This document shows, piece after piece, positions 4,578-36,278 of a DNA stretch of 64,000 bases. Position 1 is the first letter of the stretch. Every line of letters starts with the position of its first letter. Position numbers and translations under genes: made by a program. Under the pieces are notes generated by a model, which saw only the letters and a list, made by a program, of their open reading frames with translations, made no database searches and had not been told where the DNA came from. Origin of the DNA: Elusimicrobiota bacterium (lineage in GTDB: Bacteria > Elusimicrobiota > Elusimicrobia > UBA1565 > JACRDR01); the NCBI GenBank assembly GCA_041694815.1, contig JBGFSC010000006.1, forward strand, positions 1 to 64,000, in the 5' to 3' direction.

Positions 4578-4640
4578 GGCTCGGAGACATTAAACCGATT
4601 CGGAATAAAGCCTTATGGACGATTATGCTACGATCATGCG

Positions 4641-20270: not shown

Positions 20271-20309
20271 TAGGCCCTTGGGCCCTATTATTTTTGCACG
20301 CAAGGCCCA
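20271..20309. promoter_or_regulatory. Palindromic box plus a half box 23 bp downstream, upstream of the FtsH-like gene
   Basis: taggcc-cttg-ggccct (20271), ttgcac-gcaa-ggccca (20294); TGcTAAAAT at about 20330. Confidence 0.7.
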
Positions 20310-20393
20310 TGTCGATTTTGGGCGAGCGTTGCTAAAATCCACAACGTTGTTTTCGTACCTTGCGCGCAAGCCAAGGCAACTCGGGAGGTGGAA

Positions 20394-22460
20394 ATGCTTC
20401 TGTCACAGACTCGGCGGTTTTGGCTGGCCGCGCTCGCCGCGGCCCTCCTCGGAACGTCCGCGCATGCGGTAGGGCGTTCCGACATCGAAATGCTGCTGCG
20501 GCGCCGTGACGCCGCGACCGCAAGGAATCTCACCCTTCTCGTCCGTGACCGTGGGCAGAATTTCCTTGCCAAGATCACGGCCGGCAGGCCGGATTCCGAC
20601 AAGGCCGTGCACGCCTGGGCCTTCGCGCATCCCGAGACCGCGGCCGATCTTTACTCCCTCCTGATTCAACGCGGCCGTGCCGGAGCCGAGGCGTTCGCGC
20701 GTCCGGAGTCCACTTATAAGGGAATCGAAGGCCACGCGCAGATGGTGGCCGACGACAAGAAGGCGTCGGCCGAGCAGGCCAACGGCAACGCGGGCAAGCC
20801 GTTCGACGGCTCAAGCAAGAAGGACGGATCGCTTCCCGTCAATACGGGCCCGGTCGCGAAGCCCAACGGCCAGCCGTCCGCCCAGAAGAAACCGGACAAT
20901 CTCCTCGAGCGCTTGAGGAAGTGGATGGATGATGAGCGCGACGGCGTCCCCGGCTCGAGCGGCAAGCGCGAGAGCGGCAAGGTCACCTTCAAGGATGTCA
21001 TCGGCCTCAAGGAAGCCAAGGCGCAGATCATACAGTTCGTCGACATACTCAAGAATCCCGAGAAGTACGCGCGCCTGGGCGCGGAGGTGCCGCGTGGCAT
21101 CCTGATGGTGGGGCCTCCCGGCAACGGCAAGACCCTTCTGGGCAAGGCTCTCGCCAACGAGGCGGGCTTCTCCTGCTTCATCGCGAAAGCGGGTCCTGAG
21201 TTCTCCAGTAAATGGGTCGGCGAGAGCGCGGCCGAGATCCGCCGCACCTTCGAGCAGGCCCGTGCGCAGGAGCCCTGCATCATCTTCATCGACGAATTGG
21301 ACGGCTTGGCGGCGGCCCGCACCGGCATCGACCAGTCCGTGGCCCGCGAATACAACTCCACCGTCGAGCAGCTGCTCGTCGAGATGGACGGCTTGACCGA
21401 GCACAGCAAGAACGGCAAGGTGCCGAAGGTCTTCGTCATCGGCGCCACGAACCGGCCGGACCTTCTCGACCCTGCGGTCATGCGCCCCGGGCGCCTGGAC
21501 CTGCATGTCGTGATCACCTCGCCCGACATCAAGGATCGCGAGGAGATGATCAAGTACTACGTCAAGAAGAAGAAAGTCCCGGCCAACGCCGACGTGGACT
21601 TCAAGATCCTGGCTGGCCGCACCACCGGCATGTCCGGAGCCGCGATCAAGGACTTCGTCAACAAGGCCGCCTTGGTGGCCGCGGAGGAGAACGCCCAGGA
21701 TGTCACGCTCAAGCATTTTCTCAAGGCCCTCGACCGGCTGCAAATCGGCGGCGAGCGGCGCATGGTGCTTAGCGACGCCGAGAAGATCATTACCGCGCGC
21801 CATGAGCTGGGCCACGCCCTGGTCGCCACCTATACGAAGGGCGGCGATCCCGTAGGCAAGATCACGATCATCCCGCGCGACATCGGCGCGCTCGGCGTGA
21901 CGACCTCCGAGCCGCCGGAAGACCGGAAGAATTGGAGCAAGACCCAGCTCCTCAACCAGATCGCCATGGCCATGGGAGGGCGCGTCGCTGAGAAGATTTT
22001 CTACAACGACGAGACCACCGGCGCCGCGAGCGACCTGGAGAATTCCCAGAACCTCGCCTGGCAGATGGTCGTGCGCTTCGGCATGAGCGAAAAGCTGGGG
22101 CCGGTTTCCTTCGTCAAGACCGCCCAGGGCAATTATCTCTCCGGCGGAGCCTCGATGCAGCCTGTTAGCGAAGAAATTCAAAAGCTCATCGACTCCGAGG
22201 TCAAGCGCTTCCTGCTCGAGGCCGAGCAGCGGGCCATGGCCATCCTTACCGCCAAGAAGGATGTCTTGGACAAGGTGGTGCCATACCTGATCAAACAGGA
22301 AACCATGGAGGGTTCGGACCTGCGCAAGCTGCTCAAGGAGTTAGACACGAACCCGGGAGAGTATCCCGTGCAGGACCCCCCGCCGCAACAGCCGGGCTCG
22401 GATAAGCCCTTCGCGACCACCCCGACCAATCTAGGGTGCTCGGCAGGCAGGCTGTATTAA
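20394..22460 (+). CDS. ftsH: FtsH-like AAA+ zinc protease with a cleavable signal peptide and no TM anchor
   Basis: GPPGNGKT, IIFIDELD, ATNRPDLLDPAVMRPGRLD, HELGH, GGRVAE, TTGAASDL. Leader MLLSQTRRFWLAALAAALLGTSAHA; SD ggagg. Confidence 0.9.
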   Translation: MLLSQTRRFWLAALAAALLGTSAHAVGRSDIEMLLRRRDAATARNLTLLVRDRGQNFLAKITAGRPDSDKAVHAWAFAHPETAADLYSLLIQRGRAGAEAFARPESTYKGIEGHAQMVADDKKASAEQANGNAGKPFDGSSKKDGSLPVNTGPVAKPNGQPSAQKKPDNLLERLRKWMDDERDGVPGSSGKRESGKVTFKDVIGLKEAKAQIIQFVDILKNPEKYARLGAEVPRGILMVGPPGNGKTLLGKALANEAGFSCFIAKAGPEFSSKWVGESAAEIRRTFEQARAQEPCIIFIDELDGLAAARTGIDQSVAREYNSTVEQLLVEMDGLTEHSKNGKVPKVFVIGATNRPDLLDPAVMRPGRLDLHVVITSPDIKDREEMIKYYVKKKKVPANADVDFKILAGRTTGMSGAAIKDFVNKAALVAAEENAQDVTLKHFLKALDRLQIGGERRMVLSDAEKIITARHELGHALVATYTKGGDPVGKITIIPRDIGALGVTTSEPPEDRKNWSKTQLLNQIAMAMGGRVAEKIFYNDETTGAASDLENSQNLAWQMVVRFGMSEKLGPVSFVKTAQGNYLSGGASMQPVSEEIQKLIDSEVKRFLLEAEQRAMAILTAKKDVLDKVVPYLIKQETMEGSDLRKLLKELDTNPGEYPVQDPPPQQPGSDKPFATTPTNLGCSAGRLY

Positions 22461-22482
22461 AGAGTAGAACTCCTCGCGGCTG

Positions 22483-23826
22483 ATGGATCAGCCCGCCGGG
22501 GCTTCAGACGACGCGCTCGGGGCTAAAAGCTCCGAGCGCGTCGTCGCTTTTCTGCTGTTTCTCTGGCTTTTTTCCATCATCTGTTCGTATTACATCCTGC
22601 GCCCCGTCCGCAGCGCGCTGATCCTCTCGGAGTTCGGGCCCAAGGCTCTCCCCTGGGCGTACATGGGCACGGCGCTGTTTACCGGCATCGCGGTCTGGAT
22701 TTACACCCAGTTCACGTACCTGCCGCGTAAGACGCTGCTTACCCGCGTGATCCTGTTTTTTATCTCCAATTTCGCCGTGTTGTGGTGGATCGTCAGCAGG
22801 CGCATCCCTTGGTCGGCCGGCATTTTTTACGTCTGGACGGACATTTTCTCCATCATGGCCGTGACGGTTTTTTGGATGTACGTAAACGACGTCTTTCCCT
22901 CGAAGTCCGCCAAGCGGAGCTTCGGCATCATCGGTTCGGCAGGCCCGGCCGGCGCCATCGCCGGCGCCGCCTTGATCAAAATTTTCGTCCGCCGTGTGGG
23001 CGTGGAGCAGATGCTGCTGGTCGCTGGCGGATTCTTCGGCTTAGGGCTGTTGATTTTTTGGGCGCTCGAGTTCCTCACCGGTGGACGATCGGCTGAGCGC
23101 AAGAAGGCGATAGAGAAATTCGAGCAATACAATTTTTCCGAGTTTTCCAGCTTGATGCGTTCCGTGGCGCGATCAAGGGTGCTGACCCTGTTGACGGTCG
23201 CCGTGTGCTTCGAGCGTTTCGCGCCGGATTTCGTTGATTACGTGTTTTCGGCGGCCCTGCATCATGCCTATCCGGACAAGCTCGGCTACGCGGCCGTCTT
23301 CGCCACCTTCGAGTTCTGGCGCAACGTGCTCGTGTTCATCGCCACGCTGTCGCTCACCTCGACCATCCTGCGCACGCTCGGAGTGCACGTGGCCATTACC
23401 GCCGTGCCGATGACCATCCTCATCGGTGGCGCGGCCTACGCGCTGTTCCCGTTCCTGGGGGTGGCCATCGCCTTGAAGGGCTTGGAGGAGGGCCAGCGGC
23501 ATGCGTGGTTTAAGGCGGGCAAGGAAGTGATCTATACGGCCACGCATTCCGACGTCATCTACAAGGTCAAGGGCTATCTCGAGATGTTCCTCTACCGTTT
23601 TTCGCGGGGTCTGGCTGGCCTCATCATCTTGTTCTTGACCAGCGGTCTGGGTCTGGGCGCCGTCGGCGTGGCCTGGGCCGTGGTCCCGCTGGCCGCGCTG
23701 TGGGCGGTCGTGACCTGGAAGCTGGGCAAGGCGTACGAAACCAGCGAGGCCGGAGCGGCCGATAAAGAGGAGCCCGCTCTCCCCTTGGGCAAAGAGGCGT
23801 CAATATCTCAAGGTGCCAGGGATTGA
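22483..23826 (+). CDS. NTT/TLC-family (ATP/ADP translocase-like) MFS-fold transporter
   Basis: About 12 TM; YYILRPVRSAL, FYVWTDIF, FW..VNDVF...AKR.FG.IG..G..G, KEVIY......YKVKGYLEMFLYR match NTT-family signature spacing. Confidence 0.78.
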   Translation: MDQPAGASDDALGAKSSERVVAFLLFLWLFSIICSYYILRPVRSALILSEFGPKALPWAYMGTALFTGIAVWIYTQFTYLPRKTLLTRVILFFISNFAVLWWIVSRRIPWSAGIFYVWTDIFSIMAVTVFWMYVNDVFPSKSAKRSFGIIGSAGPAGAIAGAALIKIFVRRVGVEQMLLVAGGFFGLGLLIFWALEFLTGGRSAERKKAIEKFEQYNFSEFSSLMRSVARSRVLTLLTVAVCFERFAPDFVDYVFSAALHHAYPDKLGYAAVFATFEFWRNVLVFIATLSLTSTILRTLGVHVAITAVPMTILIGGAAYALFPFLGVAIALKGLEEGQRHAWFKAGKEVIYTATHSDVIYKVKGYLEMFLYRFSRGLAGLIILFLTSGLGLGAVGVAWAVVPLAALWAVVTWKLGKAYETSEAGAADKEEPALPLGKEASISQGARD

Positions 23827-23859
23827 CTTTCGCCTAGGCGAAAGTCAATCCCTGGCACC
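23812..23859. repeat. Perfect 48-bp palindrome, family B
   Basis: ggtgccagggattgactttcgcct|aggcgaaagtcaatccctggcacc; contains the TGA stop of the NTT gene. Confidence 0.95.
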
Positions 23860-23875
23860 GTTGCTACTCAGTATG

Positions 23876-23914
23876 CTGGCGACGACCCCAGGCAATGCCT
23901 CGGGTCGTCGCCAG
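23876..23914. repeat. Hairpin repeat between convergent genes
   Basis: ctggcgacgaccc-c-aggc-aat-gcct-c-gggtcgtcgccag. Confidence 0.75.
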
Positions 23915-23920
23915 ACTTGG

Positions 23921-24331
23921 CTAGTGGCGCTTGCGGACGTCGGCTTCGCGCAGCCTGCGCTCGGCCTCCTTGATCGCCAGCCAATTGCGCTTCACCTCGG
24001 CCGTGCTCTTCGCCCGCCGGCCGCCGAAGACATGCGGGTGGCGGCGCTTGAGTTTAAGGGCTTGGCTCCTGGCGACGTCCTCGATGTCGAAGCGCCCCTT
24101 TTCGCTTTCGATCTGCGCGTGCAGTAGGACCTGCAGAAGCACGTCTCCCAGCTCGTCCTCGATCTCATGCCATCGTCCCCGCTCGAGGGCCCGCTCGAGC
24201 TCCTTGGCCTCCTCGCGCAGGTAAGGGATCAGCGAGCGATGCGTCTGCCGCCTGTCCCAGGGGCAGCCGTTCGGCGCCCGCAACCGTGCGATGAGGGCCT
24301 TCAGGCGCTCAAATTGGCTTGGGCGAGGCAT
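23921..24331 (-). CDS. mazG: MazG nucleotide pyrophosphohydrolase (single domain)
   Basis: RLRAPNGCPWDRRQTHRSL, EDELGDVLLQV, KLKRRHPHVF. Confidence 0.92.
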   Translation of the reverse strand: MPRPSQFERLKALIARLRAPNGCPWDRRQTHRSLIPYLREEAKELERALERGRWHEIEDELGDVLLQVLLHAQIESEKGRFDIEDVARSQALKLKRRHPHVFGGRRAKSTAEVKRNWLAIKEAERRLREADVRKRH

Positions 24332-24382
24332 GAGGGGGCAGTATAGGAAATTTTCCCCGGCCGATAAGATATACTTTCCGGC

Positions 24383-27300
24383 ATGGCGCCACGCCTGTTC
24401 TGCGGCGCGTTCCAGCCGGCTCTCGAGGACGCCTTCTGCGAGCGCTTGGAGAGCCTTAGGCCCGGCCCGGGGCGTCGGGTCATGGTCGTAGCGCCTTCCC
24501 GCCGAATGGCCGAGAGGCTCGAGCGGCTCATCGCCTTCGAGCGAGGGCTCGGTTTCCTGGAACTGCGCGTGCACACCTTCTACAGCCTGGCCCTGGAGAT
24601 TTTGACCTCCTGCGGGCCCGAGCCCTGGATCCTCGCGGCGGACGCCCAAATCCAGGAGCTTCTGGTGCGGGGCTTGCTTACGAGTTCGCGGAGCTTGTCC
24701 CGCGGCCTCGCCGGCGCCTATAGCTCCAGCCTCAAGGACTTAGCCGACGCTGGTGTCGACCCCGAGTCTTTGAGACTGCATTTCGCGGAATGGTTCGAGG
24801 AGCCCCAGCGCTCGCTTCTTAACTCCCTGCTGGAGTTGCTGCAGGCCTATGAGCGGCGCCGGCGCGAGACCGGCCTGGCCTCCTCCTTCGATCTCGTGCA
24901 GCGCGCGACGAGGGTCGTCGAGGAAGGCCGCGAGAACCTGCTGGGTGGCTACCAAGAGATACTTTATTACGGCTTCTACGACTTAACCGGAGCCCAGGCC
25001 GATTTTTTCAACGCGGTCGCCGGCGCCTACCCGTGTTCGGTGTTCTTCCCGTATGTTAAAGGATACCCGGCCTTCAAATTCGTCGAACGCTTCTACGAAC
25101 TGCGCCTTTCGAGAGGCTCCGGGGCGCGGCACCTGCCTCCGGACTGGGGCGGCCGGGCCTTGGGCGAAGGGTTGGGCTGCCTGTTCAATCCCGGCCGGCA
25201 AGCGAGCCTTCCCGAGGGGAGGCTGCGGCTGATCAACGTCTCGGGCTCCAGAGACGAAGTGTGGGCCACCGCCAAGGGAATATTGGCCGCTAGGGAAGAG
25301 GACCCTTCTCTGAGCTTCGACGAGATAGGCGTGGTAGCCAGGTCCCTGGAGCCCTATCGCGCGCTCTTGGCGGAGGTCTTCGAAGAAAACGAAATTCCCT
25401 TCTCCATGGAGGAGGGCGAGCCGTTGTTGAGGCATCCCCTCGCCAAGCTGGCCCTGAACCTGCTCAACCTGGCGCGCATGGATTTTCCGGCGTCCGCGGT
25501 GCAGGACCTGTTGCGTTCGCCCTATCTTCGAGTCAAGGCCTTCGGCTCGGCCCAGCGGCAGGAAAGCGCCTGCCGCGTCATCGCCGCCCTGGGCATCCAT
25601 TCCGGATGGTCGCAATGGGAAGGAATATTCGGCGCGCAGGCCGGACGAGACCCGGACTCGAAAGCCATTTGGGAATGGCTTAGCTCCTTGCGCCAAAGCC
25701 TGCGGGTCGCATCCCCGCCCAGCTGGGCCGGAGCCTCGGCGCATTGGATGACGCTGCTCCAGGACCATTTCCACGTGCCGGTGGGCGATCCCGCCGCCGG
25801 CGTATGGGAGGCGATGCTCGCCGCCACGCAGGAGCTAGCCACCTTCGACCGCGCCGCCGCCGGCGCGGACTATCCAGAGATGCTCGAGGCCCTCGAGCGG
25901 CGTTGGCGCGGCCGCGCGATCCCAGCGCCAGACAGGCGCGGGGTGCGCGTCTTGGGCGCGATGGACGCCCGCGGTCATTCCTTCCGACGCCTGTTTCTAA
26001 TCGGGCTGCAGGAGGGCGTGTTCCCGCGCCAAGTGCGCGAGGATCCCCTGTTGCCGGACGACCTGCGGGCCAGGCTCGCGCATCCGGCGGGCTATTGGAT
26101 CCGGCCCAAGCTCGAAGGTTACGACGAGGAAAGGCTTTTGTTCGCTTTGCTCGTCTCCTCCGCTTCCGAGCGTCTCGTCTGCGTATACCAGCGCTCCGAC
26201 GATGCCGGGAGGGCAACGGTACCATCCTCCTACCTTCGGGAGCTCTGTAGGGCCTGCGGCGTCGACTTCTCCGGCGAGGCCAACCGCCGGGTGCCGCGCC
26301 AGCCATTGGTCAAGGTACGCGAATCGCCCCTCCTCTCGTGGTCTCCCGATGAGATGGCCTTGGCGGCCTGCGCCGCGGGCTCCGACCCCGCGCCCGCCTT
26401 GAGCGCGCTGGGGGAGGAAGCCGGCGCCCTGGCCGAGGTCCTGCGACGCAGCGCCGAGCTCAACCGCCAGGGCGGCCCTGGCCCCATGGACGGCGTCGTC
26501 GGCCCCCCGCGGCATTACCTGCGGCGCTACCGAGCGCGCGGTCGTTCCCCGAGCGAGCTCCAGGAGTACACCCGCTGCCCTTTCCGCTTCTTCATGTCCC
26601 GCGTGCTCCAGATACCGGAACCCGAAGAGGCGGCCCAGCGCGGCGCCTTGAGCGCCGAGAGGCGCGGCCGACTCTACCATGCGGCGCTCCGCCGCTTTCA
26701 TTCGCGCTTGGGCGAAAGCGGCTATTGGAGCGCGCAGGCGGCGGATTGGGTACCCGTGCTCGAGGAGGCCATCGAGGCCGAGATGGGCGCCGCGTCGTGG
26801 AAGACATTGGGCCTTTACCCGGTGCTTTGGGAGGCGATCCGGCGGACGATGACGGAGTACCTGCGCGAGTTCGTCAGCTGGGACTTGGCGGAGCTGCGTC
26901 GCAGCGGATTTAAGCCGGCGCGCTTCGAGGAGGAAGTTTCCTGCACCGTGGACGGGCTCGCCCTGCAGGGAAGGATCGACCGGCTCGACGTCGACGCCGC
27001 CGGAGGGCGTTTTCGGGTGATCGATTACAAATCCCGATCTTCCCGCCGCAGCCTGATGGAGGAAATCGCCGAGCTCCGCAAGCTGCAATTGCCTCTCTAC
27101 CTGGCCATGGCCGAGGCCTCGAGTCTCGGAGGCAAGGACGCCAAGGCCGCCGGCGGCGCGCTCTACGGCATCGAGGCCGAGGGGGATGGAGCCCGGGTCG
27201 AGTCGCTTGGCTCCACCGACTTCGAGCGCCTGCGCCGCGGGCTTTGGGAAGACCTTAAGGAGTACGATCGGCTTATCGCGAAGGGCTTCTTTCCCATCCG

Positions 27301-27406: not shown

Positions 27407-30400
27407 CTGAGGCATTGCTAGACCAGCCGGCCCGCGACGCGGCGCGCTTCGAGCTGGGGCGCAACATCGTCGTCGAGGCGGGCGCCGGCACCGGCAAGAC
27501 ATCGCTTCTGACCGAGCGCATCCTGTTCCTTTTGGCGGCCGGAGGCCCGCAAGGCCGGGGGATCGACATTACTCGCATCGTGGCGCTCACCTTCACCGAG
27601 AAGGCCGCCGCCGAGATACAGTGGAGGCTCTCCTCGAGGCTCGCGGACCTGACGGCGGCGATTGACGGCACCTTGCGCGACCCGGGCCGGCTGCAGGAAT
27701 GCCGGCGATGGATTTCGGAAGTCGGGCGGCGTTTCGGCCGTCAGGGAGAGGAGTTGCGGCGCGCTCTGGCGGAGGCCAGCGAGAAAATGGAGCGAGCCTC
27801 TATCGGCACCATCCATCGCTTCGCCGCGCAGCTGTTGCGCCTGCATCCCTTGGAGAGCGGCGTCGACCCCGCCTTCGAGGTGGACCCGGGGCCCGCCTTC
27901 GAGGAAAATTTCGAGTCGCATTGGCAGCGCTGGCTCGTGGAGGAGCTCGGCGAAGAAGCGCCGCGGCGCGAGTCCTGGCTCGAGCTGCTGGCCATCGTCG
28001 ACTTGGAGGATCTAAGGCTCTTAGCGCGCGCGCTATGCTCCGAGGAGTGCGCGGGCGCGACGCCTGCATCGCCTCAGCTGGAGCGCCGCCTGCGCGCCTT
28101 GGCCGAGGCCTTCGAGACCTTCGCGCGCAAGCCCGCGCCCGCGCGCAGCAAGGTACAAGAGCGGTGCCTGCAGGCGAAGGAAAGGCTGCGCCGCCTCGCG
28201 GAGGCTTTTTCCGGCGGGGGGGCTTTGGCTCGGCGACTTCCGGCGCCGCTTAAGGTCGGGCAATGGCCGCAGGCCTGGGGGGAGGGCGAGGAGAGGGAGC
28301 TCTTCGAGGCGGGCGCGTGGCTGGCCGAGCGCGCCTCGGCCGAAAGCGAGAGTCTGTTGCGCCGTGCCGCCGGGCTGCTGGAGCCTTTTTGCAGGCGTTT
28401 TCGAGCGGAATACAGCAGGCGCGGCCATGTGGGCTTTTCGGGCCTGTTGCGGCACGCGCGGGACCTGGTGCGCGACGATCCCGACGTCCGCTCGAGGCTC
28501 AAGCGCCGCTTCGACGTTCTGCTCATCGACGAGTTCCAGGATACCGACCCCCTGCAGGGCGAGCTGCTGCTGTTTTTGGCCGAACGGCCCGGCGACGCCG
28601 CGGCGCAGTGGCGGAAAATACGCCTGGAGCCCGGGCGCCTGTTCATCGTCGGGGATCCTAAGCAGTCGATCTATCGTTTCCGCGGAGCCGACATCCGCGC
28701 CTACGAGGAGTTCGCGCGCCTCCTGCTCGAGCAGGGCGCTCTTCGCTGCGACCTGCAGACGAGTTTTCGGAGCCATTCGGGGGTGATCGCTCCGATCAAC
28801 GCGGTTTTCGCCTCCGCCATGCGGGCCAAGGCCGGACTGCAGCCTCCATACCTCCCGATCCATCCGCGTCCGGACGGCGGCGGCTCGGCCGGGGTGGAGC
28901 TTGTCGTCTTCGAGGAGGCCGACGAGCCGGGGCCGCGTGCCGAGGCCCTGCGCCGGGCGGAGGCCGCGTGGATCGCGCGCTGGATCTCCGAGCGGGACGC
29001 GCGTTGGAAGTTTCGGGACGTCGCGATACTCATGCGCTCGACGAACGCCTTAGACATCTACCTTTCGGCGCTCAGGGCCCAGGGAATCCCGTACGCGGTC
29101 GAGGCGGACCGCCGATTCTTCGGTACCCAGGAGATACTCGATTGCGTCAATCTGCTGAGGGTCCTGGAGGACCCCGGCGACGCTATAGCGCTGGTGGGCC
29201 TGCTCCGTTCGCCGGCCGCGGCCTTAAGCGACCGGGATATCCTGGAGCTGAGGGAATCCGGTTCTCTTTCGATATTCGCGGATCCACCCGAGGGTCTGGA
29301 CCGCGAAGCGCGCCGGCGCGCTTGCGCGCTCTTTGATGAGTTGCGCGGGCTGCGCGAGCGGGTGGGCCGCGAGCCTTTGGCGGATTTCGTGCGCCGCGCG
29401 ATGCGGCGCACGCGTATGACGGAGCTTTGCGCCCAGGCGTATCACGGCGAGCAGACCGTCTCGAACCTGCTCAAGTTCCAACGCATCGCCGACGAGGCCG
29501 CAGACACGCGGGGCAGCACCTTGCGGGAGTTCCTGCTGCAGCTGGGCCGCTCTATCGAGGATTCGGCGGAGGAGGGGGAAAGCCCTCTGGCCGACGATCA
29601 TCTCGACGCCGTGCGCATCCTGACCATCCATAAGGCCAAGGGTTTGGAGTTCCCAATCGTATTCTTGCCCAATCTGGGGGCGCCGATCCGCTCCGGCGAA
29701 CCGCCGGTTTTCATGGCCGAGTGGCGCACGCAGGCGGCCGGATTCCGCCTTCCCAAGGCGAAGGCCGCGGATGCGGCCATGGCGCTGCTCCAATGGGATG
29801 AGAACCGCCGGATCCGCGAGGAATCCGTGCGCCTGCTCTACGTCGCCATGACCCGCGCGCGCGAGCGGCTGTTCCTTTTAGGCGCGGAGGCCCCCGGCCA
29901 TGCGGGTACTTTCTCTAATATATTGGCCGCGGCCGGAGCCTGGCCCCAGGGGCAAGCGGGTTCGTTGTCCATAGGCTCCCATTCCGTGCCCGTGCGGCGA
30001 GTCTCCGGGGACCGCCTTGCCGCCCCGCGGAGAAGGCGCGGCGAGGCCTGGAGCGTCGATGCGCGGGCCTGGTCGAGGGTATGGGCCGCCCGCCGCGCCG
30101 AGCGGTCGCGATGGAGCGGGGGCCTTTTCGCCAGCCCTACCGACTATCAGGCGGAGATCCAGAAGCTCCCGGCGCTCGAAGAGGGCGCGGGGCCGCCGGC
30201 GGATTGGATCGGCCGGCTCTGCCACCGCGTGCTGGAGAAGTGGGATTTCGCGCGCCCGCCGGATTTGGGCGAGGCGCTGGCCTCGGCCTGCCGCAACCTC
30301 GCCTGGCTGGAATCGGGCGTCCCGTGGAAGGCCGTCGCCGAGGAGGGATGGAGGATACTCGAAGGGTTCTTGGAGTCGGAGGCGGCCCGGGAATTGGCCG

Positions 30401-30675
30401 ATTCGGAGATACTGGGCCGCGAAATGCCCTTCTTATATCCTCGCGAAGGACGGGTGATGCGCGGCAGCCTGGACCTGCTCTACCGCCGGGGCGGAAAGCT
30501 TTGGGTAGCCGATTATAAGACGGGGAAACCGCTGCTGGACATCCGCGAAGCGCTCCGCCGCTACGGCCCCCAGGCCGGGGCCTATGTGGAGGCCGTCGAG
30601 CGCGGCCTGGGAGAAAGGCCGGGATTCAAATTATTGTGGCTGCGCGGCGGAAAATCCATCGAGCTGCCGATTTGA
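27403..30675 (+). CDS. addA: AddA-like UvrD helicase/nuclease
   Basis: [62 protein letters not shown]...ADYKT. Confidence 0.92.
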
Positions 30676-30686
30676 TAGAATGCGCC

Positions 30687-31661
30687 ATGGCCTTCCCGGC
30701 AACGAGGCTGAGGCGCTTGCGCTCGAGCCCGGCCCTAAGATCGCTGGTCCGCCAGACGCGGCTTGCCGGAGAGGACCTGGTCCTTCCCTTGTTCGTGCGC
30801 CCCGGTAAAGGCGAGCGGCGGCCGATCGCCTCCATGCCAGGGCATTTCCAGTATTCCGTCGACACGGCGGTCAAGGCCGCCAAGGAAGCGGCCGCGGCGG
30901 GCCTCCCCGCCATCCTCCTTTTCGGCATACCGGAGCGCAAGGACTCCAGGGCCAGCGGCGCCTACGCCGCAGGCGGGATCGCGCAGAGGGCGGCCTCGGC
31001 CATCAAGCAGGCCCTTCCCGAGCTGCTAGTCATCGCCGATCTCTGCTTTTGCGAATACACCGATCACGGGCATTGCGGCGTCTTGAAGGGCCGGCGCGTC
31101 GACAACGACGCCACGCTCCTTTTGGCCGGGAAAACGGCGGCGAGCCAGGCCAAGGCCGGGGCCGACATCATCGCGCCCAGCGGCATGATGGACGGCCAGG
31201 TGGCGGCCATACGCTCGGCCTTGGATCGCGCCGGATACAAGAATACCCCGATCCTCGCCTATACGGCCAAGTTCGCCTCCGCTTTTTACGGGCCGTTCCG
31301 GGAGGCCGCCGAATCCCCGCCCTCCTTCGGCGACCGCTCCGGCTATCAAATGGACCCGGCCAACGCGCGCGAGGCAATCCGCGAGGCGGAGCTCGACGTG
31401 CAGGAGGGCGCCGACATGCTGATGGTCAAGCCGGCCATGGCCTACCTCGACGTGCTCGCCGAGTTGCGGCGCCGCTTCCCGCTGCCTCTGGCGGCCTACA
31501 GCGTATCCGGGGAATTCGCGATGATCAAGGCGGCGGCGGCCCAGGGATGGGTCGACGAGCGCAAGGTCGTGCTTGAATCGCTCGCGTCGATCAAGCGGGC
31601 CGGGGCGGATTTCATCATCAGCTACCACGCCTTGGAAGCGGCGCGCTGGCTGGCGGAATGA
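30687..31661 (+). CDS. hemB: Porphobilinogen synthase
   Basis: [39 protein letters not shown]. Confidence 0.97.
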
Positions 31662-31954
31662 GCGCCTCTCGGGCGGCCTTCGCCGCCGGGGCCCTGGCCT
31701 GCTGGGCGGCCTGTCTCGCGCTGGACTATTTTTCCCTGGGCCGGATAGCCCCTAAGGTGCTTTTCATTTGCCGCTTTTACGTGGCGGCCATTTTAATGCT
31801 CACTCCGATGGTGCTCTACTGGGATGAAACGCGATACGCCGTATTCTACGCGGACCGGCGCGTTATATGGAGCATACTGTCGAGCGCCGTCTGCGGCGCC
31901 GCGGGCCTGTTTCTATGGTACCGGGCCTTAGGCGGACCTGATGGAAAAATCTGA
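31658..31954 (+). CDS. Small membrane protein (EamA-like half domain)
   Basis: 3 hydrophobic segments; translationally coupled between hemB and hemL. Confidence 0.6.
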
Positions 31955-33230
31955 TCGTTTATTCCGCCGGGCTTGCGGACTGCTGCCAGGCGGGGTCAAT
32001 TCGCCGGTGAGGGCCTTCAAGGCGGTCGGCGGCACTCCGCGCTTTATCCGCTCAGGCAAGGGAGCTCGAATTTTAGATGAGGATGGGCGTTCCTATATCG
32101 ATTATTGCCTTTCCTGGGGACCTCTTATCCTAGGCCATGCCCACCCCGCCGTCGTCGCCGCAGCGTCTCGCGCACTGAAAAGGGGATCGAGCTTCGGCGC
32201 GCCGACCGAGGCCGAATCGCGGCTGGCCGAGTTGATCCGCTCCGCCTTGCCCTCGATGCGTATGCTGAGGCTGACGAGCTCAGGCACCGAGGCCGTCATG
32301 AGCGCCCTGCGCCTGGCCCGCGCCTTCACGAGGCGTGACTGGATCGTGAAGTTCTCGGGATGCTATCACGGTCATGTCGACAGCCTGCTGGTCTCCGCTG
32401 GCTCAGGCGCTATGACATTAGGCAGTCCGGATTCCGCGGGCGTACCCGAATCTTGGGCCCGGATGACGCTTTCTTTGTCTTACAACGATGTCGCTTCCGT
32501 CGAGAACGCGTTCGCCCAATATGGCGGGCGCATCGCCGCCGTCATCATCGAGCCGCTGGCCGCGAACATGGGAGTCGTGGCGCCGCGCGAAGGATTTCTC
32601 AAGGCCTTGCGCGAGATCACCCGGCGGCACGGGGCCTTGCTTATCTTCGACGAGGTGGTGACCGGCTTCCGTCTGGAGTTCGGCGGCGCCCAGACGCTCT
32701 GGAAGATAGAGCCCGATCTGACCTGCCTGGGAAAAATTATTGGAGGGGGATTTCCAATCGGCGCTTACGGGGGGCGGCGCGAAATCATGGAGATGGTAGC
32801 GCCTTTGGGGCCGGTGTATCAGGCGGGGACCCTCTCCGGCAACCCCGTCGCCGTCGCCGCCGGCATCGCCTGTCTCGAGACTCTCCGCCGCCAGAAGCCG
32901 TACGCGCGCATGGCGCGTCTGGCCTCGCGGCTCGCCGAGGGGTTGCGCCGGCAGGCGTCGGGACTGGGCGTGCCCTTGACCGTCCAGCAATTCGCCTCTA
33001 TGCTGACCCCTTTCTTTCACGCAGGACCGATCAGCGATTACGCCAGCGCGAAGGCGGCCGACACCCGGGCTTACGCCCGATTCTTCCATGCCATGCTTCG
33101 CGAGGGAATATACCTGCCTCCGGCGCAATTCGAGGCCGCCTTCCTGTCAGCCGCGCATACCGAAAAGGACGTCGATCTCAGCTTGAGGGCAGCGGGTAGG
33201 GCGCTGGATTCGCTAACGCGAAGGACTTAG
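31941..33230 (+). CDS. hemL: Glutamate-1-semialdehyde 2,1-aminomutase
   Basis: PGGVNSPVRAF, SWGPLILGH, SGTEA, FDEVVTGFR, GKIIGGG, YQAGTLSGNP. Confidence 0.97.
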   Translation: MEKSDRLFRRACGLLPGGVNSPVRAFKAVGGTPRFIRSGKGARILDEDGRSYIDYCLSWGPLILGHAHPAVVAAASRALKRGSSFGAPTEAESRLAELIRSALPSMRMLRLTSSGTEAVMSALRLARAFTRRDWIVKFSGCYHGHVDSLLVSAGSGAMTLGSPDSAGVPESWARMTLSLSYNDVASVENAFAQYGGRIAAVIIEPLAANMGVVAPREGFLKALREITRRHGALLIFDEVVTGFRLEFGGAQTLWKIEPDLTCLGKIIGGGFPIGAYGGRREIMEMVAPLGPVYQAGTLSGNPVAVAAGIACLETLRRQKPYARMARLASRLAEGLRRQASGLGVPLTVQQFASMLTPFFHAGPISDYASAKAADTRAYARFFHAMLREGIYLPPAQFEAAFLSAAHTEKDVDLSLRAAGRALDSLTRRT

Positions 33231-33824
33231 CGAGACGAGCACTGGAAGGCCTTTGTAGAAAAAAACGAGGACGCCTTCCGGCAAGCCCATGGCGGCTCTC
33301 TGATCGGCGGACGCTTCCTTGACGCCAGCTACCTTGCGGATGGCCATGAGTACGCGCGACTGAGTCGCGATCCCGCTGTCGATGCCCACGAGTATCGCGG
33401 GGGGCGCGGGGATGACGCCGATGCTTACCCGCGGCCTATCTCCGTCATCGTAAACGGGGATCGGTATGCGATTCAAGGCGTCCGCGAATTCCTTCGCGGT
33501 CCGGAGCAGGTCTTCTTCTTTTGGTGCGCCTCCGCCGAACATGGTCGATAGAATTTGCTCCATCAGCTTGTTCTGATCCGAGCCGCGGCCCTGCGGAGCC
33601 GCTTGGATTTTCGGGATTTCCAGAAGCGGCAGTTTCCCATCCGCATCAGCCAGATTTGCCGGTCCTTCCTTTGTATAGCCTTCCGGCAAGGTGAGTAAGG
33701 GCAGTTTTCCCTGCTCGTCGAATTGGGCATCGCCCTGTTGCCTGGCATCCTCCGGGCTTTCGGCGAAGCAGGGAACGCCCGCTAAGAATACGGCGCTTAC
33801 GGCGAGAGTGAATATGGAGTTCAT
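33213..33824 (-). CDS. Secreted hypothetical protein with the SxExA..FD / KLPLL N-terminal module
   Basis: Signal MNSIFTLAVSAVFLAGVPCFA; N-terminal module paralogous to 35667-36278. Confidence 0.75.
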   Translation of the reverse strand: MNSIFTLAVSAVFLAGVPCFAESPEDARQQGDAQFDEQGKLPLLTLPEGYTKEGPANLADADGKLPLLEIPKIQAAPQGRGSDQNKLMEQILSTMFGGGAPKEEDLLRTAKEFADALNRIPIPVYDDGDRPRVSIGVIPAPPAILVGIDSGIATQSRVLMAIRKVAGVKEASADQRAAMGLPEGVLVFFYKGLPVLVSLSPSR

Positions 33825-33858
33825 GCCTCCAGTATGGGCCTTATTCCTCCGCGGCGCA

Positions 33859-33921
33859 TGAGTCCCAAGACCTAAATCGTCTGGGTCCTTGGGCCCCGAG
33901 AATTTAGGACCAAAAGGCCCT
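33859..33921. promoter_or_regulatory. Three tandem palindromic boxes (23-bp period) in a divergent promoter
   Basis: tgagtc-ccaa-gaccta (33859), tgggtc-cttg-ggcccc (33882), taggac-caaaa-ggccct (33905). Confidence 0.75.
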
Positions 33922-33954
33922 CGCGATTTGCTGCCGCTCCGCTAAACTAGTCAT

Positions 33955-35664
33955 ATGAAAAAACTACCCGTCGTACTCGCCCTCTTCACCGTATTATCCG
34001 TCGCGCCCAGCCCACGCTCCTATGCCCAGTTCGGCAATCCGTTCGCCGCGCAGGAGGAGCAACATAAGAAGGTCGTAGGAAGGCTCGGCGAAGCGCTCAA
34101 TGCCAAGCAGTCCGAGATGCCTAAGGATGTTTGGAAGAGAGTCCATGAGGAATATAACCGCCTCCTTAATATGCAGCCCCACAATCCCGAGGCCCAGAAA
34201 TCGATAGATTACCTGCAATGGTTCATCGATCTTCCTTGGGGAAAAGAGACCCAGGATCGATTCGACCTGGCGGAGGCTCAAAAGATATTAGACCGCGATC
34301 ATTACGGGCTCGACCAGGTCAAGGAGCGTGTCATCGAGTACCTGGCGGTCCGCAAGAGAACCGCCTCGCAGAAGGGAGGCATTCTCTGCTTCGTGGGGCC
34401 CAAGGGAACCGGGAAAACCTCCATCGCCAAGGCCATCGCCGAGTCCATGGGCCGCAGCTTCGTCCGCTTGTCTCTGGGCGGAGTCAATAACGAGGCGGAA
34501 TTGCGCGGGTTTCAGAGGACCTATATGGGATCACGGCCGGGCAGCATCATCACCCAGATGAAGAACGCCAAGACGATAAACCCCGTGATGCTCATGGACG
34601 AGGTGGACAAGCTGGCCGATGGCAGTCACTACGGCGATCCTCGGGCGGCGCTCTTGGAGATCCTCGACCCGGAGCAAAATAATACCTTCCGGGACCATTA
34701 TATGGATGTCCCCTATGATTTGTCGAAGGTGCTCTTCATCCTCACGGCCAACGATATGAGGAGGATCCCACCGCCCCTGCTCGACCGCGTGGAGATCATC
34801 GAGTTCTCGGCCTACACGGTGCGCGAGAAGGTGGGCATAGCCCAGCACCATATCGTGGGCCGTAAGCAGCGCGAATGCGGCATCAAGCCGGGCTCCTGCG
34901 AGCTCACCGTCGCGGCCATCGAGCAGATCATCGACGGCTACACGATGGAGGCCGGGGTGCGCAACCTGCAGGAGAACATCGGCGGCGTCTACCGCAAGGC
35001 CGCCGCCTGGGAGGAGACCAAGGGCCTGCCCATCCCCAAGAAGATCGATCATGGGCAGGTGAAGGATTACCTGGGAGCCCCGCGCTACGGCCACCGCATC
35101 ATGGAGGAAAACGGCGTCGGGGTCGGCACGGGCTTGGCGGTCAGCGACAACGGCGGGAGCACGCTCAACGTCGAGGTGCTCAAGGTGCCCGGAGACGGCA
35201 AGGTCCGCACCCGTGAGTTGATGGAGAAGATGTTCCAGGATTCCGCCGACAATGCCGTGGCCTACGTCAAGTCCAAGGCCGTGGAACTGGGCATCGATCC
35301 GGAGGATTTCAAGAAATACGATCTGGAGATCGCGATAGCTCCCGCGATTCCGGTCGACGGGCCTTCGGCGGGTACCGCCATGACCACGGCGATCGCGAGC
35401 AGCTTGAGCGGCCGCAGGATCCGTAAGGGAGTAGCCATGACCGGCGAGGTCACGTTGACCGGCAAGGTGCTCCCGATCGGTGGGCTCAAGCAGAAGGTGA
35501 TGGCGGCCGAGCGCATGGGCTACGACACGGTGCTTTTCCCCGCCGCCAACGAGCATGAGCTCGAGGAGATTTCCCCCGAAGTGCGCAAGAAGATGACATT
35601 GGTGCCCGTCAAGACGATGGACGAGGTCTTGAATCTGGCCTTGGAGCCCCGGCCCCAGGCCTGA
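33955..35664 (+). CDS. lon: Lon protease lacking the LON_N substrate domain, with signal peptide
   Basis: LD.DHYGL..VKERV.EYLAV, GPKGTGKTS, MDEVDK, ALLEILDPEQN..F.DHY, DGPSAG (Ser), PIGGLKQK (Lys). Leader MKKLPVVLALFTVLSVAPSPRSYA. Confidence 0.92.
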   Translation: MKKLPVVLALFTVLSVAPSPRSYAQFGNPFAAQEEQHKKVVGRLGEALNAKQSEMPKDVWKRVHEEYNRLLNMQPHNPEAQKSIDYLQWFIDLPWGKETQDRFDLAEAQKILDRDHYGLDQVKERVIEYLAVRKRTASQKGGILCFVGPKGTGKTSIAKAIAESMGRSFVRLSLGGVNNEAELRGFQRTYMGSRPGSIITQMKNAKTINPVMLMDEVDKLADGSHYGDPRAALLEILDPEQNNTFRDHYMDVPYDLSKVLFILTANDMRRIPPPLLDRVEIIEFSAYTVREKVGIAQHHIVGRKQRECGIKPGSCELTVAAIEQIIDGYTMEAGVRNLQENIGGVYRKAAAWEETKGLPIPKKIDHGQVKDYLGAPRYGHRIMEENGVGVGTGLAVSDNGGSTLNVEVLKVPGDGKVRTRELMEKMFQDSADNAVAYVKSKAVELGIDPEDFKKYDLEIAIAPAIPVDGPSAGTAMTTAIASSLSGRRIRKGVAMTGEVTLTGKVLPIGGLKQKVMAAERMGYDTVLFPAANEHELEEISPEVRKKMTLVPVKTMDEVLNLALEPRPQA

Positions 35665-35666
35665 TC

Positions 35667-36278
35667 ATGAGCAAGGCCACGGCAAGCTACTGGCTCGCCT
35701 TAGCCATTATCGCGCTCTCTGCGGTTGGCCGCGCGGCGGAGACCGCCAAAAGCGACGAGGAGGCCAAGCAGCAGGCTGACCTCCAATTCGATGAGTCGGG
35801 CAAACTGCCCCTACTTACCTTACCGAAAGGGTATAAAGCGGAAAGACCGGCGATGGGCAGTCTCGGAACAGCTCCTCTTAATATCACCGATGCGCAGGAC
35901 AAGCTTCCGCTCTTGCCGATCCCTTCACCGGCTCCAGCCCGACGCGCCGGGCCGAACGTGCTTGAAGGGCTTATCGGCAGCTTGATCGGCTCCGCCATCG
36001 GCAGCCATGTATTTGTCAATGTCTTTACCCCGATGTTCTCGGCGCAGCCGCTGCTGATCCCCATCGTCGCGGCTATTTTCGGCATGTCCATGGGGACTCG
36101 CATGGCCATGCCGATGGCGATGTTGATAAGGCGTCGCTGGCCCATGATCGTTATGCCCCTGTTGCTCGGAGCCGTTTGCTTCCTGATCCCTCCCATGGGT
36201 GGAGCGATATGGGGAATGATGATTCTGGGACCGCTATTCGCCCGCCTTTTGGCTAAACTCGGGTCTTTAAAGAAGTAA
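35667..36278 (+). CDS. Secreted/membrane protein with the SxExA..FD / KLPLL module and a hydrophobic Met/Gly-rich C-terminus
   Basis: Signal peptide; 2 bp after lon; several C-terminal hydrophobic helices. Confidence 0.75.
   Translation: MSKATASYWLALAIIALSAVGRAAETAKSDEEAKQQADLQFDESGKLPLLTLPKGYKAERPAMGSLGTAPLNITDAQDKLPLLPIPSPAPARRAGPNVLEGLIGSLIGSAIGSHVFVNVFTPMFSAQPLLIPIVAAIFGMSMGTRMAMPMAMLIRRRWPMIVMPLLLGAVCFLIPPMGGAIWGMMILGPLFARLLAKLGSLKK

Follow-up and report, generated by a model that had tools for sequence, protein, structure and literature searches.

The motif S.E.A...[AG]...FD, shared by an FtsH-like protease and two further proteins (P2 and P3) in a 64,000-nucleotide window, the whole stretch of Elusimicrobiota DNA that was analysed, forms the core of an N-terminal tag that is specific to one uncultured bacterial lineage and sits on its exported proteins. 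This tag, of about 16 residues, follows signal peptides, shows purifying selection, precedes diverse cargo and occurs in one part of the phylum only. There is little doubt that it is real and selected, and it would most likely be an address or docking label.

Composition and abundance of the tag

The tag is acidic, has small residues at every fourth position and ends in F-[D/T/G/E]-G. In a MAFFT alignment of 23 signal-peptide-plus-tag N-termini from this Elusimicrobiota genome, a set that does not include FtsH, E at position -10 and F at position 0 are invariant (23/23), with S at -12, A at -8, A or G at -4, and D, T, G or E and then G after F 0. The segment may be a short acidic helix with the small residues (S -12, A -8, A/G -4, F 0) on one face. 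P2, P3 and FtsH share a common ungapped register and fit E -10, F 0, the small residues at -12, -8 and -4 and the pattern after F, and ungapped alignment places 11 further proteins of this genome in the same register. In most carriers, the tag starts 0-8 residues past a Sec-type signal-peptide cleavage site. Signal peptides were called by inspection (for the 23-sequence alignment and the N-termini of FtsH and Lon) together with a crude script; on inspection, they have the Sec/SPase I features: the n-region is basic, the h-region has 10-15 residues, a helix breaker is present and the residues at -3 and -1 are small. For FtsH, P2 and P3, reading of the N-termini gives an n-h-c segment ending small-x-small, at AHA↓V, CFA↓E and GRA↓A, respectively. 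No Pfam or NCBIfam model corresponds to the tag, and literature searches found no account of it.

The regular expression S.E.A...[AG]...FD gives four matches in the crude proteome (2,384 ORFs, 823,610 aa), the expectation being 0.13 by composition and the mean of 200 shuffles 0.14 (maximum 2), and the identical four are recovered from all six-frame ORFs of at least 50 aa. Three of the four had defined the expression; the one unbiased match (G000:C17:1853-2308) immediately follows a signal peptide and, as in P2, stands in a CFAES context. Among the five best non-seed matches to a tag-only profile, four have a hydrophobic h-region just upstream, compared with 11% of random positions (binomial p 7e-4), and four are signal-peptide-like according to a crude whole-protein predictor, compared with 405 of 2,368 other proteins (Fisher p 0.004), this predictor recognising 7 of the 11 seeds and missing the other 4. 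The enrichment among signal-peptide proteins that the sequence-only reading of this DNA had anticipated is therefore borne out for the best-scoring profile matches, being lost at lower score thresholds. Because the tag is enriched behind signal peptides and precedes diverse cargo, the lack of enrichment among secreted proteins, named in that reading as the outcome that would speak against it, is not what was found. The further claim of a shared module between signal peptide and cargo also holds.

At E<=0.1, a profile of the 23 N-termini finds 43 matches in this genome and 0-10 in each of 40 relatives. In a six-frame hmmsearch of this genome, the tag stands directly behind a cleavable-looking signal peptide in about 45 ORFs (matches 1-46, less three LTDG variants on C24), which corresponds to about 2% of its ORFs.

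Tag copies at the P2-Lon-P3 and FtsH loci

P2 (33213..33824, minus strand) and P3 (35667..36278, plus strand) lie on either side of a short Lon-like protease of 569 aa (33955..35664, plus strand; Lon_C 4e-61, AAA 4e-25), with P3 starting 3 nt past the Lon stop codon. Both have a signal peptide, a tag and a linker with two KLPLL repeats, followed by a soluble C-terminal domain in P2 and by three hydrophobic segments in P3, and their description as paralogues is confirmed (phmmer E 3.6e-15; 54% identity over residues 7-97). The tag copies are SPEDARQQGDAQFDE in P2 (residues 23-37; 33714..33758, minus strand) and SDEEAKQQADLQFDE in P3 (residues 29-43; 35751..35795, plus strand), each placed by both the ungapped and the MAFFT alignment. 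In P2, the tag starts one residue past the predicted cleavage site CFA↓E. A single-sequence AlphaFold2 model of P2 has pLDDT below 50 over residues 1-94, with a short helix at residues 23-28, and 58-89 per 10-residue block (mostly 72-89) over residues 100-200; the C-terminal domain, of about 100 residues, matched no Pfam or NCBIfam family. The Lon-like protease scores 633 bits with TIGR00763, the match starting at profile position 249, and by reading its N-terminus is signal-peptide-like (MKKLPVVLALFTVLSVAPSPRSYA↓Q). The protease itself is tag-less. Signal-peptide Lon orthologues from a related genus conserve [NR]FDG within an otherwise variable Ala/Pro extension, aligned in five of six and displaced in the sixth.

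The FtsH-like AAA+/M41 protease of 690 aa (20388..22460, plus strand; PF00004 2e-37, PF01434 7e-58) reads GPPGNGKT, IIFIDELD and HELGHA, and both the AAA module and the M41 peptidase with HEXXH are present. Its TIGR01241 score of 486.6 bits is under the curated 600. The classical FtsH layout, in which a periplasmic domain lies between two N-terminal transmembrane helices and the catalytic domains are cytoplasmic, does not apply: there is only one N-terminal hydrophobic segment, reading of residues 28-200 reveals no second hydrophobic stretch, and Pfam gives no FtsH_ext match. Residues 1-27 read as a signal-peptide-like segment (...SAHA↓VG; 20388..20468, plus strand), which is also found in the orthologues of genomes G001 and G005 and in P0019. 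The tag copy, SAEQANGNAGKPFDG, occupies residues 127-141 (20766..20810, plus strand; ungapped alignment) and a low-complexity linker leads from it to the AAA module; unlike those of P2 and P3, it lies about 100 residues past AHA↓V, well outside the 8-residue distance. The motif positions and letters first given for FtsH, P2 and P3 are exact. The GxLP said to follow in ungapped alignment is present in all three, although GKLP stands 2 residues past FD in P2 and P3 and GSLP 7 residues past FD in FtsH, so that this part of the FtsH alignment needs a gap.

The sequence evidence suggests that the FtsH copy is probably a genuine tag. With profiles built without it, FtsH scores 9.0 bits (E 0.21) and 6.6 bits (E 1.7), and the iterated profile ranks it 25 (E 2.3), values at which about one such match is expected per proteome. 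These values would suit a chance match, the motif then being only a shuffled N-terminal module spread by lineage duplication, with no FtsH role, as would the atypical position, the similar scores of two unrelated HD-domain proteins after iteration, and the N-terminal 215 residues, for which no relative was detected (1 of 41 genomes, its own, and only itself in a 5.8-billion-protein search). Such a coincidence seems improbable, however, as FtsH ranks fourth of 2,373 non-seed proteins with the tag-only profile, the other four of the top five being clear members, and fits all seven consensus positions, both invariant ones included. Moreover, F(M)D[GN] ahead of the AAA module sets the signal-peptide FtsH clade apart, being found in 3/3 signal-peptide FtsH representatives vs 0/118 other AAA modules (FM?D[GN] within 80 aa upstream of the AAA module; 121 modules from the 150 best FtsH-like representatives; Fisher 3.5e-6, with the kinship of the sequences ignored), and the P0019 FtsH has SASEAIEDAAGAFDGG at the corresponding place.

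Behind FtsH, 23 nt away and on the same strand, lies a TLC/NTT-like nucleotide exchanger homologue of 447 aa (22483..23826, plus strand; PF03219 2e-10, partial). This gene order is repeated in G001 and G005, being thus found in 3/3 genomes having the signal-peptide FtsH. The match to PF03219 covers profile positions 138-370 of 491 and TIGR00769 gives 34 bits; with a cut-off of 387, the protein does not qualify as a full-length TLC/NTT ATP:ADP antiporter and, by its sequence, is a distant TLC/NTT relative only. In a related genus the exchanger, a multi-pass transporter of the 12-helix type, has a tag-like motif of its own. Signal peptides are found on FtsH-, Lon- and Clp-like proteins, the FtsH adjoining the nucleotide-exchanger-like gene. 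With the profile from this genome, the presumed tag sites in FtsH orthologues score below 0 bits and the Lon and transporter sites at most 3.9 bits (E at least 14); because these scores are so low, all three kinds of presumed site depend on a core of 3-4 residues and its context.

Tether, cargo and competing roles

After the tag, an Ala/Pro/Ser/Gly-rich tether (median 56 residues in membrane-anchored members) leads to unrelated cargo. The linker spans 49-95 residues, 51% of which are A, P, S or G vs 32% in the proteome. Hydrophobic transmembrane segments follow in 22 of the 23 aligned members of this genome, P2 being the exception, and in these 22 there are 59 K/R in the 15 residues preceding the first post-linker segment vs 14 in the 15 that follow. 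Under the positive-inside rule, the excess before the segment would put the tether end in the cytoplasm, whereas an outside location is indicated by the signal peptide and by the acidic tag, which would amount to a topology paradox.

The diverse cargo expected behind the tag is indeed present in related genomes, where it comprises glycosidases, M14/M48/M50 peptidases, an oxidase, a cupredoxin and small membrane proteins. For 26 tagged ORFs of relatives, the Pfam families are Glycoamylase (2), alpha-amylase (2), FAD_binding_4 (1), M48 (2), M50 (1), M14 (1) and cupredoxin (1), with none in 16. Tag N-termini were also inspected in five further alpha-amylase orthologues, and in 7 orthologous amylases E..R..A.A.FDG is conserved while the signal peptide before it and the linker behind it vary. 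In a phylum survey that scored only 24 candidates per genome, 22 of 301 sampled genomes match at E<=5e-4, including 7 of 27 in family f2, 11 of 22 in f5, 1 of 88 in f4 and 1 of 89 in f14.

The sequence-only reading proposed a two-step secretion or surface-exposure signal, the tag directing proteins after Sec export to an outer-membrane translocon or the cell surface. The position directly behind the signal peptide and ahead of a flexible linker would agree with this, and so would the soluble cargo of relatives (glucoamylase-like, alpha-amylase, M14 carboxypeptidase), typical of secreted or displayed proteins; post-signal-peptide precedents are CsgA N22 and the TPS domains. Another is the Bacteroidetes lipoprotein export signal (LES; PMC5080379). 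Nonetheless, this role is unlikely. The strongly hydrophobic segments in 22/23 aligned members should stop transfer in the inner membrane, AAA+ proteases, among which FtsH carries the tag, have no ATP outside the cell, and a multi-pass transporter has a tag-like motif in one genus. An outer-membrane secretion role therefore fits poorly with cargo that includes multi-pass membrane proteins and ATP-dependent proteases. Also, the outer-membrane or pilus machinery that was expected to co-occur did not emerge from a Pfam scan of 116 neighbouring ORFs, in which no secretin, pilus, usher-type or other outer-membrane machine gene recurs.

On a second alternative, which seems distinctly doubtful, the tag would be a degron or adaptor handle for the signal-peptide AAA+ proteases, with tag and unstructured tether serving as the engagement site at which FtsH-, Lon- or Clp-like unfoldases would pull tagged membrane proteins out and degrade them. 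The geometry that AAA+ unfoldases need, a principle established for ssrA-type tags, is offered by a terminal tag with 49-95 disordered residues behind it. Moreover, tagged genes repeatedly lie beside proteases: P2 and P3 flank Lon, the tagged C2_22004 adjoins a signal-peptide Clp-like ATPase, an M48 peptidase adjoins C6_93596 and an M28 peptidase C29_46196. However, the proteases themselves bear the tag, stable enzymes such as amylases and glucoamylases keep it as a conserved feature, and ATP would be needed on the tag's side of the membrane.

Docking, related systems and significance

Overall, the best explanation, which we hold at about an even chance of being correct, is a lineage-specific tag, borne on a flexible tether, for docking or co-localisation; the choice of docking or co-localisation over a secretion signal or a degron is made tentatively, from sequence evidence. 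After export, the tag would be displayed at the tip of the tether, where it would bind other tagged proteins or a common partner in the envelope, so that membrane-anchored small proteins, hydrolases and AAA+ proteases with signal peptides would be brought to a single site. In this case, Lon, which is tag-less, would be served in trans by the tags of its neighbours P2 and P3, whereas FtsH would carry the tag in cis. We infer the helicity of the tag, its side of export, its binding and the identity of any partner. Counting against docking are the topology paradox and the chance-level profile scores of FtsH; in addition, AAA+ proteases outside the cytoplasm would be without ATP unless it is supplied there. 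A more specific proposal, quite improbable as it stands, is that the tag marks parts and clients of ATP-dependent proteolysis outside the cytoplasmic membrane, in which signal-peptide-bearing FtsH-, Lon- and Clp-like machines would receive ATP from a dedicated TLC/NTT-like exchanger, with the tag keeping the proteases, the exchanger and the tethered membrane substrates close to one another.

Short linear peptides that dock onto an envelope partner are represented by the TolA box at the mature TolB N-terminus and by TonB boxes. Like the tag, they would lie near the N-terminus of an exported protein and be exposed on a flexible stretch; unlike it, they bind as β-strands, whereas the tag looks helical, has many copies (about 45 per genome) and precedes many cargo types. 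Because there is no sequence resemblance, the comparison is one of analogy only. CsgA N22 (curli, type VIII secretion) and the TPS domains of two-partner secretion are second-step N-terminal signals behind a Sec signal peptide. For each, a neighbouring gene encodes an outer-membrane partner of its own (CsgG, TpsB), whereas none was found among the 116 ORFs scanned near tagged genes; N22 is rich in Gly and Asn and the TPS element folds as a domain of 250 residues, both unlike the tag. The mitochondrial i-AAA protease (Yme1) works alongside the ADP/ATP carrier, and FtsH with its exchanger gene may be analogous in having catalytic domains facing outside an energy-transducing membrane, next to a nucleotide exchanger, although the FtsH N-terminus is not homologous to that of Yme1 and the exchanger is TLC/NTT-like rather than a mitochondrial carrier.

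The LES of Bacteroidetes is K-(D/E)2 or Q-A-(D/E)2 and, like the tag, is acidic, directly behind the signal-peptide cleavage site, lineage-restricted and present on many hydrolases, deciding the final location of the protein (PMC5080379). It needs a lipidated Cys at +1 and has 3-5 residues, whereas the tag is an apparent helix of about 16 residues ending in FDG, with cargo that includes inner-membrane proteins and AAA+ proteases. The tag does not qualify as an LES: there is no lipobox before it, cleavage sites are of the AxA type and Cys, where present, is at -3 (CFA↓E). The systems LPXTG/sortase, PEP-CTERM/exosortase and GlyGly-CTERM/rhombosortase came from genome-wide motif counting (bioRxiv 10.1101/2023.06.07.544157). 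They share with the tag a short motif in many copies per genome, unrelated cargo and a restricted taxonomic range. These sorting domains are C-terminal, combine a motif with a transmembrane helix and a basic tail, and have a known cleaving enzyme, whereas the tag is N-terminal.

Cells address their exported proteins by short sorting or docking tags, earlier examples of which led to new machines, such as sortases, exosortases, type IX secretion and the lipoprotein export signal. The tag carriers are thus a ready list of proteins expected to share a location or a partner in an uncultured phylum. To our knowledge, the old assumption is that the bacterial periplasm is without ATP-driven proteolysis; a tag on exported-looking ATP-dependent proteases, one of them beside a nucleotide-exchanger gene, makes this assumption testable. 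If true, extracytoplasmic FtsH, Lon and Clp together with the exchanger would be a bacterial counterpart of the i-AAA protease and the ADP/ATP carrier.

Sequence family and architecture of the tag

The three stretches that defined the motif lie, letter for letter in the ORF translations, where the sequence-only reading had placed them: SAEQANGNAGKPFDG at residues 127-141 (nt 20766-20810) of an FtsH-like AAA+/M41 protein (ORF 20388-22460, + strand), SPEDARQQGDAQFDE at residues 23-37 of the small protein P2 (ORF 33213-33824, - strand), and SDEEAKQQADLQFDE at residues 29-43 of P3 (ORF 35667-36278, + strand). P2 and P3, whose genes flank a Lon-like gene (33955-35664, + strand), are indeed paralogous (phmmer E 3.6e-15 over the first ~100 residues; 54% identity over residues 7-97). 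The GxLP said to follow every copy is found in the same register in P2 and P3 but five residues further on in FtsH. In a crude, home-made set of gene calls (2,384 ORFs), the exact motif expression gives four matches, against 0.13 expected by composition and a maximum of two in 200 shuffles. Since three of them had defined the expression, the fourth, on contig C17, is the informative one; it lies immediately after a signal peptide, and its CFAES junction is identical to that of P2. Signal peptides and helicity were assessed by eye throughout, and protein locations are predicted.

With the C17 protein, P2, and P3 as queries, phmmer recovered further small proteins, 11 of which align without gaps on the Phe. 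In a MAFFT alignment of 23 N-termini comprising signal peptide plus tag, two columns are invariant, those of Glu -10 and Phe 0. Also, small residues at -12, -8, and -4 fall on one helix face, and the Phe is followed by D/T/G/E and then mostly by G, the tag starting 0-8 residues past an AxA-type cleavage site. A lipoprotein-type signal was rejected, no lipobox being present ahead of the tag in this alignment. At E<=0.1 the corresponding profile matches 43 times in this genome versus 0-10 times per genome in 40 relatives, and a six-frame hmmsearch gives about 45 tagged ORFs here, several of which are absent from the GC3-filtered gene set because the islands that contain them have an atypical composition. 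Tagged proteins are usually built of a signal peptide, the tag, a tether, a basic patch in many cases rich in Pro, hydrophobic segments (one to several), and a variable C-terminus. The tether spans 49-95 residues (median 56), with Ala/Pro/Ser/Gly making up 51% of it versus 32% of the proteome. No Pfam/NCBIfam family was detected in any tagged member scanned in this genome.

Two variations accompany this family. Three tandem paralogous ORFs of 339-357 aa (G000:C24:36310-39463, G000 being this genome) carry after their signal peptides a variant, SPE[TS]QH[AT]QAAALTDG, in which Leu-Thr replaces x-Phe. Moreover, three tagged membrane proteins (loci L057:4005-4619, L052:3455-4078, and L062:1613-2197) terminate in [DK]RF[KR]L, so that the N-terminal tag and this C-terminal tail co-occur on the same proteins.

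For the C-terminal part of P2, the ESM Atlas returned nothing usable for residues 80-203. A single-sequence AlphaFold2 model (mean pLDDT 58.4) predicts with moderate confidence an alpha/beta unit at residues 100-203 (window 33213-33524), with no Foldseek match in the PDB at E<=0.001. A nucleotidyltransferase fold appeared only in the best weak Foldseek rows (E>=0.06) and was not trusted. Among the 40 relatives, homologues of P2 amount to a single weak C-terminal match (E 0.0016).

Cargo and taxonomic range in relatives

In the relatives the tag is rarer, yet the matched loci show it heading unrelated cargo. Among 26 tagged ORFs scanned with Pfam, we found Glycoamylase (2), alpha-amylase (2, with five more orthologues seen among the matched loci), FAD_binding_4 (1), Peptidase_M48 (2), Peptidase_M50 (1), Peptidase_M14 (1), and cupredoxin (1), the remaining 16 being family-less and for the most part small membrane proteins. 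E..R..A.A.FDG forms an island of identity in seven amylase orthologues from family f5, with a variable signal peptide on one side and a variable linker on the other; the tag itself is thus under selection. Across a phylum sample, 22 of 301 genomes have a match at E<=5e-4, a lower bound, as are the family counts, because 24 candidates were scored per genome. These matches are concentrated in families f2 (7/27) and f5 (11/22), and the two largest families are nearly free of the tag (1/88 and 1/89).

The FtsH-like protein and other AAA+ machines

Whether FtsH carries a true copy is a question that cuts across all readings of the tag's function, and the profile score alone cannot settle it. Against profiles built without FtsH, its stretch reaches 9.0 bits (E 0.21), the tag-only version giving 6.6 bits (E 1.7) and the iterated one E 2.3, a level at which about one chance match is expected per proteome. 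With the tag-only profile, however, FtsH ranks 4 among 2,373 non-seed proteins, and the rest of the top five are clear members with the tag immediately behind a signal peptide. The FtsH motif also satisfies every consensus position, and a signal peptide is present in this protein as well, as is a low-complexity stretch past the motif. Residues 1-215 of FtsH match only themselves in 41 genomes and in a search of 5.8 billion proteins. Orthologues of this form occur in only two of the 40 relatives, G001 (53% identity) and G005 (51%), and among 1.84 billion representatives only P0015 and P0019 stand out. These rare forms (G001, G005/P0015, and P0019) all have a signal peptide and lack the second transmembrane helix, and ~30 residues ahead of the AAA module they present DKIFDNS, GRFMDGS, and SASEAIEDAAGAFDGG, respectively. 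An FM?D[GN] site within 80 residues upstream of the module is found in 3 of 121 modules from the 150 best representatives, and its carriers are precisely the three signal-peptide forms (Fisher 3.5e-6, for carriers that are kin). This kinship points to retention in a diverged region rather than to three independent events. On the other hand, the orthologue sites score below 0 bits with the profile from this genome, and in a MAFFT alignment of the three FtsH N-termini the FD sites do not align with each other. Taken together, we consider that the FtsH stretch is probably a true copy and that a coincidence is unlikely.

The gene 23 nt past FtsH (22483-23826, + strand) encodes a distant homologue of TLC/NTT-type exchangers, and this order is kept in G001 and G005. 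Its orthologues in genus g11 (38-39% identity) bring a signal peptide of their own, and between it and the first transporter helix lie a Ser/Pro/Ala stretch and GKKAGDEVFSGD. A crude hydropathy script yielded only nine segments for the TLC-like protein, unusable for topology. In genus g13, a ~916-aa ORF (L120, G019:C131) has a TLC-like transporter fused behind a signal peptide, the upstream part containing an Ala/Pro stretch with QVFDAS and, by reading, an endonuclease/exonuclease/phosphatase-like domain. NTT homologues are frequent in free-living bacteria, where their role is not known (PMC5381601).

The Lon-like protein between P2 and P3 (569 aa) has a signal-peptide-like start and lacks both the usual Lon N-domain and the tag. 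In its closest relatives, from genera g11 and g18 (54-56% identity), a signal peptide is followed by a long run of Ala/Pro and then by [NR]FDG or SFDA, after which acidic residues precede a full Lon; [NR]FDG aligns as an island in five of six. A ClpB/ClpA-like ATPase on contig C2 adjoins a tagged gene and shows a signal peptide and then NDPFTGG ahead of a Pro run. The tag-like sites in the orthologues of FtsH, Lon, and the transporter, in Clp, and in a WD40 protein on contig C54 were identified by eye plus context; with the profile from this genome, those of Clp and the WD40 protein are missed, and those of Lon and the transporter score <=3.9 bits and are therefore leads, not members. The TLC-like gene was also considered as an obligatory partner of signal-peptide Lon, but this did not hold: a search at E<=1e-10 gave no match to it in G030, G034, G028, G008, or G037, all with close Lon relatives, those of G037 and G008 having transmembrane anchors instead of the signal peptide.

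This genome contains three AAA+ machines with signal-peptide-like starts, FtsH-like, short Lon-like, and ClpB/ClpA-like (G000:C2:22715-25135, equivalent to L057:4716-7133), none with a further membrane helix. Besides these, it has two further loci of the FtsH-like kind and a further one of the Lon-like kind.

Possible roles of the tag

The sequence-only reading had proposed a two-step secretion signal and named a co-occurring outer-membrane or pilus machinery as a check. By Pfam, no such machine recurs among 116 neighbouring ORFs. Moreover, the cargo includes hydrophobic multi-pass proteins and ATP-dependent proteases, which are not secretion substrates, and this speaks against a signal that takes proteins across the outer membrane; we regard a second-step secretion or surface role as rather unlikely.

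What does recur near tagged genes are proteases (M48, M28, DUF4157/eCIS-core metallopeptidase-like, Lon, and a Clp-like ATPase) and WD40 propellers, interleaved with the tagged genes at three loci (contigs C6, C38, and C54), often with overlapping stop/start codons. That the tag would be a recognition handle for exported AAA+ proteases seems to us improbable. The exported propellers alternating with tagged membrane-protein genes are at L050:4111-5232, L053:1418-2560 and 4254-5243, and L056:4787-6037, and the one on C54 opens, by eye, with a tag-like stretch. As a universal receptor, the propellers are weakened as candidates, tagged proteins without a WD40 neighbour being common. Directly past two tagged genes, a stator-like module stands in an unusual context (L058:5379-8367; G000:C15:13378-16367), in the order FliG_M/FliG_C-like membrane protein with a signal-peptide-like start, MotA/ExbB-like, and MotB/OmpA-like.

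Upstream of FtsH there is a GGCCC-TT-GGGCC palindrome (window 20273-20284), and an imperfect GGTCC-TT-GGGCC lies in the divergent P2/Lon intergenic region (33884-33895). The strict palindrome has 21 sites genome-wide. It occurs in the 250 nt preceding the start of 2 of 45 tagged or AAA genes versus 7 of all 2,384 genes, the half-site GGCCCT[AT] being upstream of 13/45 versus 223/2,384. This enrichment is modest; the palindrome may be the DNA box of the sequence-only reading and a shared operator.

The reading we favour, tentatively, is that of a docking or co-localisation label. A helix at the end of a long flexible tether, common to membrane-anchored proteins, soluble enzymes, and proteases, would bring its carriers to one common partner or to other tags, and the S-x3-A-x3-[AG]-x3-F face would be suited to tight helix-helix packing.

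Nonetheless, one observation fits none of the readings cleanly. In 22 members (for example, window 35667-36278, L049:4397-4825, and L047:1853-2305), 59 Lys/Arg fall in the 15 residues preceding the first hydrophobic segment past the tether versus 14 in the 15 after it, and in five or six members a lipobox-like L-x-[GA]-C closes this segment. By the usual rules, this would place the tether end inside the cell, although the acidic tag, like the signal peptide ahead of it, points outside. In one subfamily (L058:3568-4362, L058:4131-5177, L048:3365-4300, L051:3757-4659, and L051:4659-5516), the tether is followed by a basic patch and a hydrophobic stretch ending LLTGC/LAAC/LGAC, and then by a domain in which two Cys are conserved (DPC ... 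CGPEA); this stretch looks like a second, lipoprotein-type signal within the same ORF.

Among known systems, the CsgA N22 segment is placed like the tag, and sortase/exosortase-type sorting domains match its genomic signature. In action, the tag may be likened to the TolA box of TolB and the TonB box, as a terminal docking peptide. A comparable placement is that of the Bacteroidetes lipoprotein export signal (PMC5080379). However, the tag belongs to none of these classes, being set apart by the absence of sequence similarity, of a lipobox, and of a dedicated neighbouring machine, and by its N-terminal position. No Pfam/NCBIfam model covers it, and the openly accessible literature yielded nothing about the tag, nor about the export of AAA+ proteases in Elusimicrobia. 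The contribution of this analysis lies in how far the tag extends, which cargo it heads, where it occurs taxonomically, and how it is linked to AAA+ proteases with signal peptides.
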